Origin: a virus
Lineage: Duplodnaviria; Heunggongvirae; Uroviricota; Caudoviricetes
Virus record (IMG/VR): IMGVR_UViG_3300012275_000005
DNA length: 16,164 nucleotides
Reading direction: 5' to 3' (one strand)
Shown here: in pieces, positions 475 through 9,967 of the stretch
Layout of the letters: every line of letters starts with the position of its first letter
Position numbering within the stretch: position 1 is the stretch's first letter
The notes under the pieces: generated by a model
Told to the model about the DNA's origin: nothing
The model's database searches: none
What the model saw: only the letters and a program-made list of their open reading frames with translations
Program-made: the position numbers and the translations under genes

Positions 475-543
475 CTGACTTATCTGACAAATCTGTACTT
501 CAAAATCAGAGAAGACAAGCGTAAGGCTGCACGGGGAGAGTAA
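475..543 (+). CDS. pinholin (S21-like class II holin), C-terminal fragment; 5' part lost in N gap
   Basis: Visible translation [22 protein letters not shown]-stop matches the C-terminal tail of phage 21 pinholin S21 as I recall it (…[22 protein letters not shown]). A highly charged C-terminal tail is typical of holins. It sits upstream of a SAR-type endolysin. Confidence 0.55.
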   Translation: [22 protein letters not shown]

Positions 544-547
544 TTCA

Positions 548-899
548 ATGACTCAAAACTATGAAGTGATTGTGAAAGGGATCCGCAATTTTGAGAATAA
601 AGTTACGGTAACTTTAGCGTTACGGGACAAAAAAACGCTTTGACGGTGAAATTTTTGACCTGGACATCTCGCTGGACCGTGTTGAAGGTGCCGCGCTGGA
701 GTTTTATGAGGCAGCAGCCAGAAGGAGCATCAGACAGGTCTTCCTGGATGTTGCTGCCGGGTTATGTGAAGGGGATGAGCAGTCGCCGGAAAAGCGCCCC
801 GTAATTTTAGATGCGCAGAATGTGTGGATAACCTACAAAGGAAAGCTACCAGGAAGAATTACTGGTTCTCTGAAGACTCCTCCGGAATCACAACCTTAA
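548..899 (+). pseudogene. hypothetical protein, reading frame disrupted at an A7 tract (629..635)
   Basis: ATG 548 with GGGGAGAG upstream opens a frame that stops at 641..643 (31 aa). A second frame is open 618..899 but contains no ATG and overlaps the first across A7. Removing one A joins them into a ~116-aa hydrophilic protein (MTQNYEVIVKGIRNFENKVTVTLALRDKK-RFDGEIFDLDISLDRVEGAALEFYEAAARRSIRQVFLDVAAGLCEGDEQSPEKRPVILDAQNVWITYKGKLPGRITGSLKTPPESQP). Function not recognised. Confidence 0.45.
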
Positions 900-962: not shown

Positions 963-1478
963 ATGAACGCAAAAATCAGATACGGCCTGTCGGCTGCCGT
1001 TCTGGCACTGATTGCCGTCGGTGCGCCCGCGCCTGATATTCTCGACCAGTTTCTGGATGAAAAAGAAGGTAACCACACAACGGCATACCGGACCATCTGT
1101 CGGGGTGCCACGATGGTGGATGGAAAACCCGTTTTTCCCGGTATGAAACTGTCGAAGGAAAAATGCGACCAGGTCAACGCCATTGAGCGTGATAAGGCGC
1201 TGGCATGGGTGGAGCGCAATATTAAAGTACCACTGACCGAACCACAAAAAGCGGGTATCGCGTCATTTTGTCCCTATAACATTGGCCCCGGTAAGTGTTT
1301 TCCGTCGACGTTTTATAAGCGGCTGAATGCCGGTGATCGTAAGGGCGCATGCGAGGCGATTCGCTGGTGGATAAAAGATGGTGGGCGCGATTGCCGCATA
1401 CGTTCAAATAACTGCTATGGACAGGTTATTCGTCGTGACCAGGAAAGCGCATTAGCCTGTTGGGGGATAGATCAGTGA
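963..1478 (+). CDS. endolysin, phage lysozyme (T4-lysozyme/GH24-like) with N-terminal SAR-like hydrophobic segment
   Basis: 171 aa. N-terminal Ala/Gly/Leu-rich stretch [18 protein letters not shown] resembles a signal-anchor-release domain. The C-terminal half is colinear with phage 21 R-type endolysin (…[13 protein letters not shown]…ALACWG). It is followed by Rz/Rz1. Confidence 0.85.
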
Positions 1479-1942
1479 GCAGAGTCGCCGCGATTATTTA
1501 TGCTCTGGTTATCTGCACTATCGTCTGCCTGTCGTGGGCGGTCAATCATTACCGTGATAACGCCATCGCCTACAAAGAACAGCGAGATAAAAAAGTCAGT
1601 GAGCTGAAGCAGGCGATCGCCACCATCGCTGACATGCAGCAGCGTCAGCGTGATGTTGCTGCGCTCGATGCAAAGTACTCGAGAGAATTAGCCAATGCGA
1701 AAGCTGAAAATGAAACTCTGCGCGCTGATGTTGCCGCTGGTCGTAAGCGCCTGCGGGTCAATGCCAGTTGCTCCGCAGCCGTGCGTGAAGCCACCGGCCC
1801 CACCAGCGTGGATAATGCAACCATCCCCCGGCTGGCAGACACCGCTGAACGGGATTATTTCACCCTCAGAGACCGATTGATGACGATGCAGAAGCAACTG
1901 GAAGGGGCACAGCTATACATTCGTGAGCAATGCCTCAGATAA
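1475..1942 (+). CDS. Rz: i-spanin Rz
   Basis: GTG start overlapping the endolysin stop; N-terminal TM segment [19 protein letters not shown] followed by a coiled-coil-like charged region; contains the embedded Rz1 gene in the +1 frame. The track ORF begins at an upstream TTG (1460), which I consider less likely. Confidence 0.85.
1695..1880 (+). CDS. Rz1: o-spanin Rz1 (outer-membrane lipoprotein), embedded in Rz
   Basis: 61 aa; signal peptide with lipobox LVVSAC; proline-rich mature part ([17 protein letters not shown]); wholly inside Rz in another frame, the classic lambda Rz/Rz1 architecture. Confidence 0.8.
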
Positions 1943-5785: not shown

Positions 5786-5968
5786 ATGTTTCTGATAATT
5801 CTCGCGCCACTGGTGGGCGTGCTGGGTGCGCTTTTGCTGGCGTATGGTGCCTGGCTGATTTATCCCCCGGCGGGGTTTGTTGTTGCCGGGGCGTTGTGTC
5901 TGTTCTGGTCGTGGCTGGTGGCGCGATATCTCGACCGTACACAGCCGTCTTTCGGCGGAGGTAAATAG
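5786..5968 (+). CDS. hypothetical small membrane protein (2 predicted TM helices)
   Basis: 60 aa, [26 protein letters not shown]…[20 protein letters not shown] then charged tail; RBS GAGGT upstream; fills the terL-portal gap exactly, with its stop overlapping the portal GTG. Could still be a chance ORF in GC-rich DNA. Confidence 0.35.
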
Positions 5969-7092
5969 TGTTCTTTTCGGGATTATTTCAACGAAAAAGT
6001 GACGCACCGGTGACCACGCCAGCAGAGCTGGCGGATGCCATCGGGTTGTCTTACGACACCTATACCGGAAAGCAGATCAGCAGTCAGCGGGCCATGCGAC
6101 TGACGGCGGTTTTTTCCTGCGTCAGAGTGCTGGCAGAGTCGGTCGGGATGTTGCCCTGCAATCTGTATCACCTGAACGGCAGCCTGAAACAGAGAGCCAC
6201 CGGCGAACGTCTGCATAAGCTGATCTCCACGCATCCCAATGGCTATATGACGCCGCAGGAGTTCTGGGAGCTGGTGGTCACCTGTCTGTGCCTGAGGGGA
6301 AACTTTTACGCCTACAAAGTGAAAGCATTTGGCGAAGTGGCTGAACTGCTGCCCGTCGATCCCGGTTGTGTGGTACCGAAGCTTAACAGTAGCTGGGAGC
6401 CGGTCTATCAGGTCACATTCCCGGACGGCTCCACGGATGTGCTGAGCCAGGAGGATATCTGGCATGTGCGCACGCTGACGCTGGACGGACTGGTGGGGCT
6501 GAATCCCGTCGCCTATGCCCGCGAGGCAATATCGCTGGCGGCAGCGACTGAAGAGCACGGGGCCAGACTGTTCAGCAATGGTGCGGTGACGTCCGGTGTG
6601 TTGCGTACAGAACAGACGCTGTCGGATCAGGCTTATGAGCGCCTGAAGAAAGATTTTGAGGAGCGTCACACCGGGCTTGGCAATGCTCACCGCCCGATGA
6701 TCCTTGAGATGGGGCTGGACTGGAAGTCGATGGCGCTGAACGCCGAGGACAGCCAGTTCCTGGAAACCCGCAAGTTTCAGCTTGAAGAAATCTGTCGTCT
6801 GTTCCGGGTACCGTTGCACATGGTGCAGAACACCGATCGCGCCACCTTCAACAATATCGAAGAACTGGGGCTCGGATTTATCAACTATTCACTGGTGCCG
6901 TATCTGACCCGCATCGAACAGCGGATCAACACCGGACTGGTACGAAAAAGTAAGCAGGGCGTTTATTACGCCAAATTTAACGCCGGGGCGTTACTGCGCG
7001 GGGATATGAAGTCCCGTTTTGAAGCCTACGCCACCGGGATTACAACTGGGGAATTTACTCTCCCAATGACTGCCGCGACCTGGAAGATATGA
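5968..7092 (+). CDS. portal protein (HK97 family); 3' end apparently frameshifted, with a portal-like C-terminus continuing in another frame to 7211
   Basis: 374-aa ORF with GGAGG RBS and GTG start. The frame ends …EAYATGITTGEFTLPMTAATWKI-stop, but the next frame reads …NWGIYSPNDCRDLEDMNPRPGGDVYLTPMNMTTKPSDGSKAGKQKDNANADETTS-stop (7041..7211), which looks like the genuine hydrophilic portal C-terminus. Confidence 0.85.
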   Translation: MFFSGLFQRKSDAPVTTPAELADAIGLSYDTYTGKQISSQRAMRLTAVFSCVRVLAESVGMLPCNLYHLNGSLKQRATGERLHKLISTHPNGYMTPQEFWELVVTCLCLRGNFYAYKVKAFGEVAELLPVDPGCVVPKLNSSWEPVYQVTFPDGSTDVLSQEDIWHVRTLTLDGLVGLNPVAYAREAISLAAATEEHGARLFSNGAVTSGVLRTEQTLSDQAYERLKKDFEERHTGLGNAHRPMILEMGLDWKSMALNAEDSQFLETRKFQLEEICRLFRVPLHMVQNTDRATFNNIEELGLGFINYSLVPYLTRIEQRINTGLVRKSKQGVYYAKFNAGALLRGDMKSRFEAYATGITTGEFTLPMTAATWKI

Positions 7093-7188
7093 ATCCGCGT
7101 CCCGGTGGGGATGTCTATCTCACACCGATGAACATGACCACGAAACCCTCCGATGGCAGTAAAGCCGGTAAGCAGAAGGATAACGCCA

Positions 7189-7839
7189 ATGCAGACGAAA
7201 CAACGTCTTGATGTACCGCTGAGTCTGAAATCTGTCAGTGACTCCGGTGAGTTTGAAGGGTATGGCTCCGTCTTTGGTGTAAAGGACAGCCACGATGATG
7301 TGGTGATGTCCGGGGCATTTGCTGCTTCCCTGCGGGCGTGGAGTGACAGAAAAGCGTTACCTGCGCTGCTCTGGCAGCACCGCATGGATGAACCCATCGG
7401 TGTTTACACCGAAATGAAGGAAGACGATGTCGGGCTTTACGTCAGGGGGCGGTTGCTCATTGATGATGATCCCCTGGCAAAACGCGCACATGCACACATG
7501 AAGGCCGGTTCGTTAACCGGCCTTTCTATTGGGTACTTCCTGAAGGACTGGGAATACGACCGGACGAAAGAAGCCTTTCTGCTGAAAGAAATCGACCTCT
7601 GGGAAGTCAGTCTGGTGACGTTCCCGTCTAACGACGAGGCACGGATCAGCGACGTCAAGAACGCGCTGGCCCGCGGGGAAATCCCCGAACAGAAAAAAAT
7701 CGAAAGAGTCCTGCGTGATGTCGGACTCTCCCGTACCCAGGCCAAAGCATTCATGGCCGGGGGCTATAGCGCACTGTCCCTGCGCGACGCTGAGGATGTG
7801 AGCTCTGCACTGAATGCACTGAAAAATCTGAACTTCTAA
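7189..7839 (+). CDS. prohead protease (HK97 family)
   Basis: MQTKQRLDV…FEGYGSVFGVKDSHDDVVMSGAFAASL… motif typical of HK97-type prohead proteases; RBS AAGGA 6 nt upstream of ATG 7189. The track ORF starts at 7153 in the same frame; I prefer 7189. Confidence 0.8.
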   Translation: MQTKQRLDVPLSLKSVSDSGEFEGYGSVFGVKDSHDDVVMSGAFAASLRAWSDRKALPALLWQHRMDEPIGVYTEMKEDDVGLYVRGRLLIDDDPLAKRAHAHMKAGSLTGLSIGYFLKDWEYDRTKEAFLLKEIDLWEVSLVTFPSNDEARISDVKNALARGEIPEQKKIERVLRDVGLSRTQAKAFMAGGYSALSLRDAEDVSSALNALKNLNF

Positions 7840-7853
7840 TCAGGAGAAATACG

Positions 7854-9059
7854 ATGGCGGTAGATATTAAAGATGTCGAACAGGTCGCGCAGGAGCTGCA
7901 GCAGAAGTTTGACGACTTCAAAGCAAAGAACGACAAGCGCGTGGATGCGATTGAGCAGGAAAAAGGCAAACTTGCCGGGCAGGTGGAAACCCTGAACGGA
8001 AAACTCAGCGAGCTGGAAAATCTCAAAAGCGACCTTGAAAAAGAGCTGCTTGAGCTGAAACGTCCGGCAGGTGGTGCGCAGAATAAACTGGCCACCGAGC
8101 ATAAAGAAGCGTTTGTGGGCTTCCTGCGTAAAGGCCGTGAAGATGGTCTGCGCGATCTGGAGCGCAAGGCATTACAGGTGGGCACCGATGAAGACGGTGG
8201 CTATGCCGTGCCGGAAGCGCTGGATCGCAACATTCTGACCTTGCTGAAAGATGAAGTGGTGATGCGCCAGGAAGCCACGGTGATCACCGTTGGCGGTTCC
8301 GACTACAAAAAACTTGTGAATCTGGGCGGCACGGCTTCCGGATGGGTTGGCGAGACTGACGCGCGCTCCCAGACTGCCACCTCAAAACTGGGCCTGATTG
8401 AACCTTTCATGGGGGAAATCTACGGTAACCCGCAGGCCACCCAGAAAATGCTGGATGATGCCTTTTTCAACGTGGAGGCCTGGATCAACAGCGAGCTGGC
8501 AACCGAATTTGCCGAACAGGAAGAAATTGCCTTTACCACCGGCGATGGTACCAAGAAGCCGAAAGGGTTCCTGGCGTATGAGTCCACGGATGAAACAGAC
8601 AAGGTCCGGGCGTTCGGCAAACTTCAGCATATTGTATCCGGCGAAGCGACGGCGGTGACCGCAGATGCCATTATCAAACTGATTTACACGCTGCGTAAGG
8701 CACACCGCACTGGCGCGAAGTTCATGATGAACAACAACAGTCTGTTTGCCATCCGTCTGCTGAAAGACAGTGAGGGTAACTATCTGTGGCGTCCGGGGCT
8801 GGAGCTGGGGCAGCCGTCCTCTCTGGCGGGTTACGGTATCGCTGAAAACGAACAGATGCCGGATATCGCCGCTGATGCGAAAGCCATTGCATTTGGTAAC
8901 TTCAAACGGGGTTACACCATCGTTGACCGTATCGGTACCCGCATTCTGCGTGACCCGTACACCAATAAACCGTTTGTCGGTTTTTATACCACCAAGCGCA
9001 CCGGCGGGATGCTGGTCGATTCGCAGGCCATCAAACTGCTGAAGATTGCAGCGGCGTAA
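7854..9059 (+). CDS. major capsid protein (HK97 fold) with N-terminal delta/scaffold domain
   Basis: 401 aa; the first ~100 aa are a charged coiled-coil-like segment (…QELQQKFDDFKAKNDKRVDAIEQEKGKLAGQVETLNGKLSELENLKSDLEKELLELK…) as in HK97 gp5 delta domain; strong RBS AGGAG; follows the protease. Confidence 0.9.
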   Translation: MAVDIKDVEQVAQELQQKFDDFKAKNDKRVDAIEQEKGKLAGQVETLNGKLSELENLKSDLEKELLELKRPAGGAQNKLATEHKEAFVGFLRKGREDGLRDLERKALQVGTDEDGGYAVPEALDRNILTLLKDEVVMRQEATVITVGGSDYKKLVNLGGTASGWVGETDARSQTATSKLGLIEPFMGEIYGNPQATQKMLDDAFFNVEAWINSELATEFAEQEEIAFTTGDGTKKPKGFLAYESTDETDKVRAFGKLQHIVSGEATAVTADAIIKLIYTLRKAHRTGAKFMMNNNSLFAIRLLKDSEGNYLWRPGLELGQPSSLAGYGIAENEQMPDIAADAKAIAFGNFKRGYTIVDRIGTRILRDPYTNKPFVGFYTTKRTGGMLVDSQAIKLLKIAAA

Positions 9060-9066
9060 TCACTCA

Positions 9067-9086
9067 GGGGCGCGGAACCGCGCCCC
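9067..9086 (+). terminator. GC-rich hairpin (GGGGCGCG-GAAC-CGCGCCCC) immediately after the capsid gene; weak U-tract
   Basis: Perfect 8-9 bp GC stem located 8 nt after the MCP stop; followed by TGTT only, so at best a partial terminator or an mRNA 3'-stabilising hairpin. Confidence 0.4.
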
Positions 9087-9107
9087 TGTTCTGACGGGTG
9101 AAGAATC

Positions 9108-9621: not shown

Positions 9622-9967
9622 ATGCAGGCAGGAAGATTACGTGATCGTGTGGTTATTCTGAATGCCACCACCGTTCGGTCTCCGTCAGGGCACCCTGTGG
9701 AAACAATGACGGAGGGGGCAACCATATGGGCAGAAGTTAAGGGGNNNNNNNNNNAGTGGCAGGGAGAGAATATCCGGAGGCGCAGAAACTGCTCAGGCTA
9801 CAGTGAGGGTCTGGATGAGATTCCGGCGAGATGTAACAGCAACTTCATGTCTGAAAGTGCTGACTGGTGCATTCAAAGGCGCGATTCTGAGTATAGACGG
9901 TCCGCCGATACCGGATGCTCGTGCCACACGGCTTGAGATACTCTGTTCTCAGAAGGGGAATGTGTGA
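9622..9967 (+). CDS. head closure / head-tail joining protein (HK97 gp7-like), interrupted by an N gap and probably a frameshift
   Basis: N-terminus MQAGRLRDRVVILNATTVRSP…IWAEVKG in one frame. After the gap, …VAGREYPEAQKLLRLQ-stop (9756..9806) and …QATVRVWMRFRRDVTATSCLKVLTGAFKGAILSIDGPPIPDARATRLEILCSQKGNV-stop (ending 9967) lie in two different frames. The track translation after the gap (WQGENIRRRRNCSGY…) looks non-protein-like. Confidence 0.6.
9745..9754. other. assembly gap (10 N) inside the head-closure gene
   Basis: Run of N; true length unknown, so the reading frame across it is undefined. Confidence 0.99.

Follow-up and report, generated by a model that had tools for sequence, protein, structure and literature searches.

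Endolysins of the T4 lysozyme (T4L) type share a short active-site signature, Glu-X8-(Asp/Cys)-X5-Thr, which is the triad motif of all T4L-like endolysins whose structures have been solved (PMC8228626; PMC9239132). In the R endolysin of phage 21 (R21) and in its DLP12 relative, the three residues are E35, D44 and T50 (PMC8228626, Table 3), and the catalytic Asp and Thr are borne by the beta1-beta2 hairpin (PMC8228626). For an inverting mechanism, the Glu carboxylate and its partner group have to lie 7-9.5 A apart across the cleft (PMC8228626). The D20C form of T4L keeps its activity (PMC8228626, citing Hardy & Poteete 1991), and lysozyme-like enzymes that have a single Glu have been described, namely goose-type lysozyme, lambda transglycosylase and AP3gp15 (PMC5674055). 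SAR endolysins are distinguished by sec-dependent export without cleavage and by release from the membrane on depolarisation (PMC9239132). The R proteins of Stx phages, which are homologous to the protein discussed here, are predicted to be SAR endolysins and are paired with pinholins (PMC8136144).

The gene considered here lies in a window of 16,164 bp, by which we mean the whole stretch of DNA that was analysed, and it encodes a lysozyme from which the catalytic Asp appears to be missing. The initial annotation had numbered the residues of interest as E35, T44, T50 and D53 and had seen no Asp nine positions after the Glu. Translation of the open reading frame confirms both points: the protein reads E35-GNHTTAYR-T44-ICRGA-T50-MVD53, and the residue at E+9 is Thr, neither Asp nor Cys. 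Hardy and Poteete are said to have found in 1991 that, of the substitutions made at Asp20 of T4 lysozyme, only Cys keeps substantial activity. The Glu-X8-(Asp/Cys)-X5-Thr motif is absent from the window protein, and Glu35 is kept. The Pfam model PF00959 (Phage_lysozyme) matches residues 39-161 of the 171-aa ORF at E = 6e-19, its 69 bits exceeding the cut-off of 22.3. Judged by its sequence, the gene is a member of the GH24 family by descent that no longer carries the family's active-site pattern, because of one recent lesion (Table 1). It is a common and well-known prophage endolysin, present either as a damaged copy or with an assembly error, and it is not a new kind of enzyme.

Table 1. Positions in the window of the endolysin gene, its active-site codons and the other genes of the lysis cassette, with the portal gene.
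Feature	Position	Strand	Remarks
Holin gene, 3' end	475..543	+	Last 69 bp; the 5' two-thirds lie inside the N gap at 279-474
ydfR (DUF1327) pseudogene	548..899	+	+1 frameshift at an A7 run (about 629-635), relative to 606R7
Endolysin gene, rrrQ-type GH24 / T4-lysozyme-family prophage lysozyme	963..1478	+	171 aa, 516 bp; carries the 18-bp deletion
Candidate SAR segment	981..1034	+	Residues 7-24; weakly hydrophobic; 9/18 Ala/Gly/Ser
Glu35 codon	1065..1067	+	General-acid Glu of the triad, kept; invariant column; aligns with R21 E35
Deletion junction in codon Arg43 (CGG)	1089..1091	+	From DNA alignment; pairwise with AR_0089
Thr44 codon	1092..1094	+	Thr50 of the intact form, the water-positioning catalytic Thr; 9 residues from Glu35, not 15
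Thr50 through Asp53	1110..1121	+	Thr50 (1110-1112) is intact T56 and Asp53 (1119-1121) is intact D59; no catalytic equivalents
Rz i-spanin	1475..1942	+	Intact; PF03245 at 1e-47; reference length, no internal stops
Rz1 o-spanin lipoprotein	1695..1880	+	Embedded in Rz; intact; PF06085 at 2.5e-17
Portal gene	5968..7211	+	Private 2-bp insertion (TA) at 7041-7042; frameshifted ORF ends at 7092

The nature of the lesion emerges from comparison with the closest homologues. A megablast search with the ORF matched 270 phage and 4,292 E. coli records. Among the best-ranked full-coverage matches listed, the homologous gene is 534 bp long and encodes 177 aa, against 516 bp in the window, and the top matches stand at 96.6% identity, which equals 516/534 and therefore denotes the same sequence but for the gap. 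A single E. coli record reaches 99% identity or more and falls outside the listed full-coverage matches; it is without the deletion junction, as established by the junction 40-mer search described below, and is probably a partial match. DNA alignment with phages vB_EcoM-606R7 and mEp460 yields a single clean gap of 18 bp, or six codons (DGSGIW), and a base-by-base comparison with the endolysin gene of E. coli AR_0089 yields zero substitutions over 516 bp and the gap only. The absent bases are GTGATGGTTCCGGCATCT in phage 606R7 and GCGATGGGTCCGGCATCT in AR_0089. The lost stretch comprises the third base of the Arg43 codon and the codons D44-G-S-G-I-W49, and the junction restores an Arg codon. 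Taken together, the alignments indicate that the Asp-less motif is the outcome of one in-frame deletion event of 18 bp. Two ways of aligning the region had been offered at the outset. The gapped one, in which a six-residue segment with the Asp is missing, is the one that holds against the closest homologues. The ungapped one, in which Thr50 stays in register with the catalytic Thr, rests on a coincidence, because T50 and T56 of the intact protein lie six residues apart, which is the length of the deletion.

We also considered how such a gap might arise. Microhomology at the junction amounts to 1 bp (G), and we reject a slipped-strand or repeat-mediated hot-spot. A direct repeat, CGGCAT, is present nearby; its spacing of 19 bp would give a different, out-of-frame product, so it is not the cause of the gap.

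Intact homologues read E35-GNHTTAYR-D44-GSGIW-T50-ICRGA-T56, the canonical E35-X8-D44-X5-T50 arrangement, and the triad numbering of the intact allele matches that of phage 21 R and DLP12 RrrD (E35/D44/T50). Among 62 cluster representatives of 73-95% identity, E35, D44 and W49 are invariant and T50 is nearly so. An alignment with R21 and the closest homologues had been proposed as a check; in it E35 is aligned, and D44 is absent from the window protein only through the gap. What the deletion removes is the Asp, the hairpin turn and the beginning of beta2, with Trp49 among the lost residues. Residues that might be thought to take over from the Asp are already present in the intact form: D59 (D53 in the window) is nearly invariant beside D44, and C52 (C46 in the window) occurs alongside D44 in every intact homologue. 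Because D59 coexists with D44 in the intact protein, D53 is not a relocated catalytic residue. It aligns with residues 39-40 of LysF1 (7M5I), close to where the ‘catalytic loop region’ (Glu15-Lys41) ends, and this part of the LysF1 structure has poor density, which its authors put down to flexibility (PMC8228626).

Structural models give a compatible picture. An AF2 model of the 171-aa protein, built from a 63-sequence alignment, has a T4L-like fold (pLDDT 82, pTM 0.82), and a Foldseek search with this model returned 7m5i (LysF1), 9kbs (PHAb11), 6et6 (an A. baumannii muramidase), 4zpu (DLP12) and 3hde (R21), all at a probability of 1.00 and with TMq values of 0.62-0.68. In the AF2 model of an intact representative (P0019), the hairpin is regular, with strands at 38-43 and 49-52. 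In the model of the window protein, residues 36-62 form isolated bridges with no strand of three residues or more, a result to be read with the insensitivity of AF2 to destabilising deletions in mind. The window model is weak evidence that agrees with loss of the hairpin.

Matched letter for letter against ~15 billion proteins, the 171-aa sequence has a single entry, that of the JGI/IMG contig which constitutes the window; the intact 177-aa protein is encoded by 1000 contigs or more. A 40-mer with the junction at its centre, which can seed megablast in deletion alleles only, was unmatched in the 5,426 complete genomes of E. coli. Neither a junction 23-mer nor a degenerate 10-residue junction pattern, the latter meant to catch diverged alleles with the same gap, found a match in GTDB species genomes, IMG/VR or JGI metagenome contigs, the last of these collections having returned not even the source contig, which leaves the metagenome negative somewhat weaker than it looks. 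As positive controls, the degenerate junction pattern matches the window and the corresponding intact-form pattern matched at least 120 viral contigs. In a search of 5.8 billion clusters, every full-length sequence among the best 120 cluster representatives retains the Asp. The exceptions are further singletons, each with its own lesion. Singleton homologues with in-frame deletions are P0029 (8 aa, TAYRDGAG), P0036 (20 aa), P0075 (22 aa), P0089 (17 aa) and P0132 (19 aa), and P0016 has an internal duplication of 76 aa; the catalytic Asp is also lost in two of the singleton E. coli homologue deletions. This pattern suggests that sporadic damaged copies of prophage endolysins, or assembly errors in a repeated gene, form a recurring background.

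The genes around the endolysin are those of a lambdoid lysis cassette, which is recognized here by the spanin pair, Rz with embedded Rz1, directly downstream of the endolysin. The GTG start of Rz overlaps the endolysin stop codon, giving a 4-base overlap of the two genes. The visible part of the holin gene is identical to the gene for a ‘class II holin family protein’ in AR_0089 and to that of 606R7; we found no literature on the induced phage vB_EcoM-606R7. The rrrQ-type endolysin of the window is a probable SAR endolysin on the strength of its N-terminus, where the SAR-like segment has a mean Kyte-Doolittle hydropathy of 1.9 over 17 residues (2.3 in R21). The frameshift in ydfR recurs in E. 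coli AR_0089, whose genome is complete and has the gene annotated as a pseudogene; because AR_0089 has the same frameshift, it is a real feature of the lineage and older than the endolysin deletion.

Over its whole length the window matches, at 99.2% identity, a Qin-like lambdoid prophage present in E. coli AR_0089 and in several poultry isolates; in AR_0089 this prophage sits between the ydfA-D/dicB region and zinT. Its genes run from a tRNA cluster through class II holin, ydfR, lysozyme, Rz/Rz1, a GNAT acetyltransferase on the minus strand and HNH to TerS, TerL, portal, protease, major capsid, head/tail genes and tape measure. To judge gene integrity, every CDS of AR_0089 was mapped onto the window. 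Rz/Rz1, terminase, protease, capsid and tail genes are intact relative to AR_0089, and the holin and head-closure genes are broken by N gaps. Since most of the compared genes are intact, decay of the prophage is mild. The portal gene carries an insertion that, like the endolysin deletion, is private to the window: a 40-mer that spans it is absent from the 5,426 complete E. coli genomes. It represents either another lesion that inactivates the prophage or another error of assembly. Three runs of N (279-474, 1951-1991 and 9745-9754) measure 196, 41 and 10 bases, where AR_0089 has 230, 64 and 3 bp. Hidden under them are the first two-thirds of the holin gene and the stretch that follows Rz; the head-closure gene is interrupted as well. 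Because the lengths of these runs look like estimated scaffold gaps, we take the window to be a gapped draft metagenome scaffold.

Several other features of the prophage deserve mention in their own right. The window begins (1-69) six bases inside the last tRNA gene, tRNA-Gly, of a cluster that in AR_0089 reads Ile-Lys-Thr-Gly, and ARAGORN reports no tRNA in the window because the window starts at this point. Between the lysis cassette and the HNH/terminase genes, an intact 161-aa ORF on the minus strand (2098-2583) corresponds to a GNAT family N-acetyltransferase of AR_0089 and looks like a moron-type cargo gene. Just past the major capsid gene, a G+C-rich hairpin at 9060-9100 has several substitutions and single-base indels relative to AR_0089 and is still a perfect stem (GGGGCGCGG-AA-CCGCGCCCC against GGGGGCGCA-GAAG-TGCGCCCCC); it is probably a terminator kept through compensatory changes. 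Most of the 96 difference runs that separate the window from AR_0089 fall in the portal-protease-capsid block (5875-9100), a clustering that suggests a head module exchanged with another prophage in mosaic fashion, and not uniform divergence.

We consider it likely that the window gene carries a recent loss-of-function lesion in the rrrQ-type endolysin of a decaying Qin-like lambdoid prophage. An in-frame deletion of 18 bp with 1 bp of microhomology would have taken out D44-G-S-G-I-W49, and with them the catalytic Asp, the turn of the beta1-beta2 hairpin and the beginning of its second strand; this hairpin presents Asp and Thr to the substrate cleft. The 171-aa product can probably still be made and exported, and may fold in part, given that it keeps the SAR-like N-terminus, Glu35 and the helical lobe. 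It would be without the carboxylate on the base/nucleophile side and without the geometry that places the catalytic Thr and water, and we predict a protein that is catalytically dead or severely crippled. A prophage copy of this kind could then not lyse its host by itself, and with the portal frameshift it would make no particles either, as expected of ordinary prophage decay. An inactive enzyme in a decaying prophage had been one of the two readings in the initial annotation, and it gains support from the private deletion of an invariant Asp and Trp, from the portal frameshift and from the ydfR pseudogene, with an artefact as its rival. Counting against it are the overall fold that AF2 still assigns to the protein (pLDDT 82), the possibility that both private lesions are errors in a draft metagenome scaffold, and the fact that some lysozyme-like enzymes work with a lone Glu (PMC5674055).

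Under the rival just mentioned, an artefact of assembly or sequencing, the organism has neither the 18-bp deletion nor the +2 portal insertion; both would stem from assembly, gap-closing or consensus calling over a lysis cassette of which co-resident lambdoid prophages carry several copies. The window is the whole of a JGI/IMG metagenome contig with three N runs, the endolysin-Rz block lies between two of its gaps, E. coli genomes have up to 12 copies of the lysozyme gene each, which makes it a classic trouble spot for assembly, and both indels are private to this contig. However, the deletion lies 486 bp and 862 bp from the nearest N gaps, there is no flanking repeat able to collapse, neither indel is a homopolymer error, and chimerism between prophage copies cannot produce the junction, since no known paralogue has it. 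We regard such an artefact as unlikely, although credible enough to be kept in view when the gene is interpreted.

The remaining explanations accept the short protein as real and grant it a function. It might still be muralytic once the hairpin has re-packed locally, with Glu35 acting by itself or beside a residue that stands in for the Asp (D53, D32/E33 or Cys46, the last on the model of Cys51 in P1 Lyz), and it could even be an attenuated lysin retained by the host. In keeping with this are the preserved frame, the otherwise unchanged gene, the confident T4L-like fold predicted by AF2, and the precedents of single-Glu lysozyme-like enzymes (PMC5674055) and of active T4L D20C (PMC8228626). 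However, an in-frame result is expected for one in three random indels, no second sequence has the same architecture, hence there is no sign of inheritance or selection, and the invariant W49 and the hairpin turn have been lost along with the Asp side chain. The proposed substitutes fare no better: D59 and C52 stand beside D44 in intact homologues already and hence did not evolve for the role, and D53 aligns with a distal LysF1 loop of poor order. A functional variant is thus very unlikely, and so is the particular form in which the shorter protein is real and either still lytic or recruited by the host as a peptidoglycan-binding protein of attenuated or regulatory function, relying on Glu35 by itself or on a replacement nucleophile, for instance Cys46 or Asp53. 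If this were true, the T4-lysozyme fold would tolerate loss of the hairpin turn that bears the Asp. A natural endolysin subfamily with a relocated catalytic carboxylate, the other reading put forward initially, has in its favour the bare motif E35...T44...T50...D53 and nothing else. Outside the gap the gene is base-for-base the same as the intact allele, and the best 120 cluster representatives keep the Asp unless privately damaged. There are zero further occurrences in any collection searched: no other such sequence exists among ~15 billion proteins, and, with positive controls, junction and degenerate pattern are unmatched across the 5,426 E. coli genomes and the three contig collections (GTDB, JGI and IMG/VR). 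We have accordingly rejected this idea, whose probability we regard as close to negligible.

The window gene is thus best flagged as a probable non-functional allele or possible assembly error, and not as a new catalytic variant. More generally, the lysis genes of prophages gather sporadic in-frame lesions, and several singletons of this family have their own. Because such lesions accumulate, a motif call of the ‘missing catalytic residue’ kind should be checked against the nearest homologues before a mechanism is proposed.

Set among known systems, the window gene is the same gene as that of the 177-aa RrrQ-type lysozymes of Qin-like, Stx-like and mEp460-like E. coli phages and prophages, as exemplified by WP_000992100.1 (E. 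coli AR_0089), URC08755.1 (phage vB_EcoM-606R7) and AFM76093.1 (phage mEp460). The mEp460 gene has 89.5% nucleotide identity to it by megablast with the 18-bp gap counted. The gene context (holin, ydfR, lysozyme, Rz/Rz1, terminase) is shared as well, and the window copy differs in being without the six codons D44-W49, which include the catalytic Asp and the invariant Trp. The R endolysin of phage 21 and RrrD of DLP12 (PDB 3HDE, 3HDF and 4ZPU) share the GH24 T4L-like fold with the window protein and have, as the RrrQ type does, an N-terminal Ala/Gly-rich SAR-like segment and, as the AR_0089 allele does, a class II holin partner. They are only about 36% identical to the window protein, and the RrrQ type is set apart from R21 by eight Cys and by extra loops (an MVD insert and a 10-residue insert); unlike R21 and RrrD, the window copy has no equivalent of D44. 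The closest solved structure is that of LysF1 from the E. coli O157:H7 phage FAHEc1 (PDB 7M5I), with the best match both in sequence (7e-17) and, by E-value, in structure (TMq 0.63). LysF1 shares the architecture of catalytic loop, connector helix and helical bundle, but unlike the window protein it has no SAR domain and a full Glu15-Asp24-Thr30 triad. Goose-type lysozyme, the lambda R transglycosylase and gp15 of Burkholderia phage AP3 resemble the window protein in having an active site with Glu only (PMC5674055). However, those Asp-less enzymes form distinct families, each conserved and with a fold that evolution has shaped for catalysis by one Glu, whereas the window gene appears to have lost its Asp through a one-off deletion in a family where this residue is invariant.
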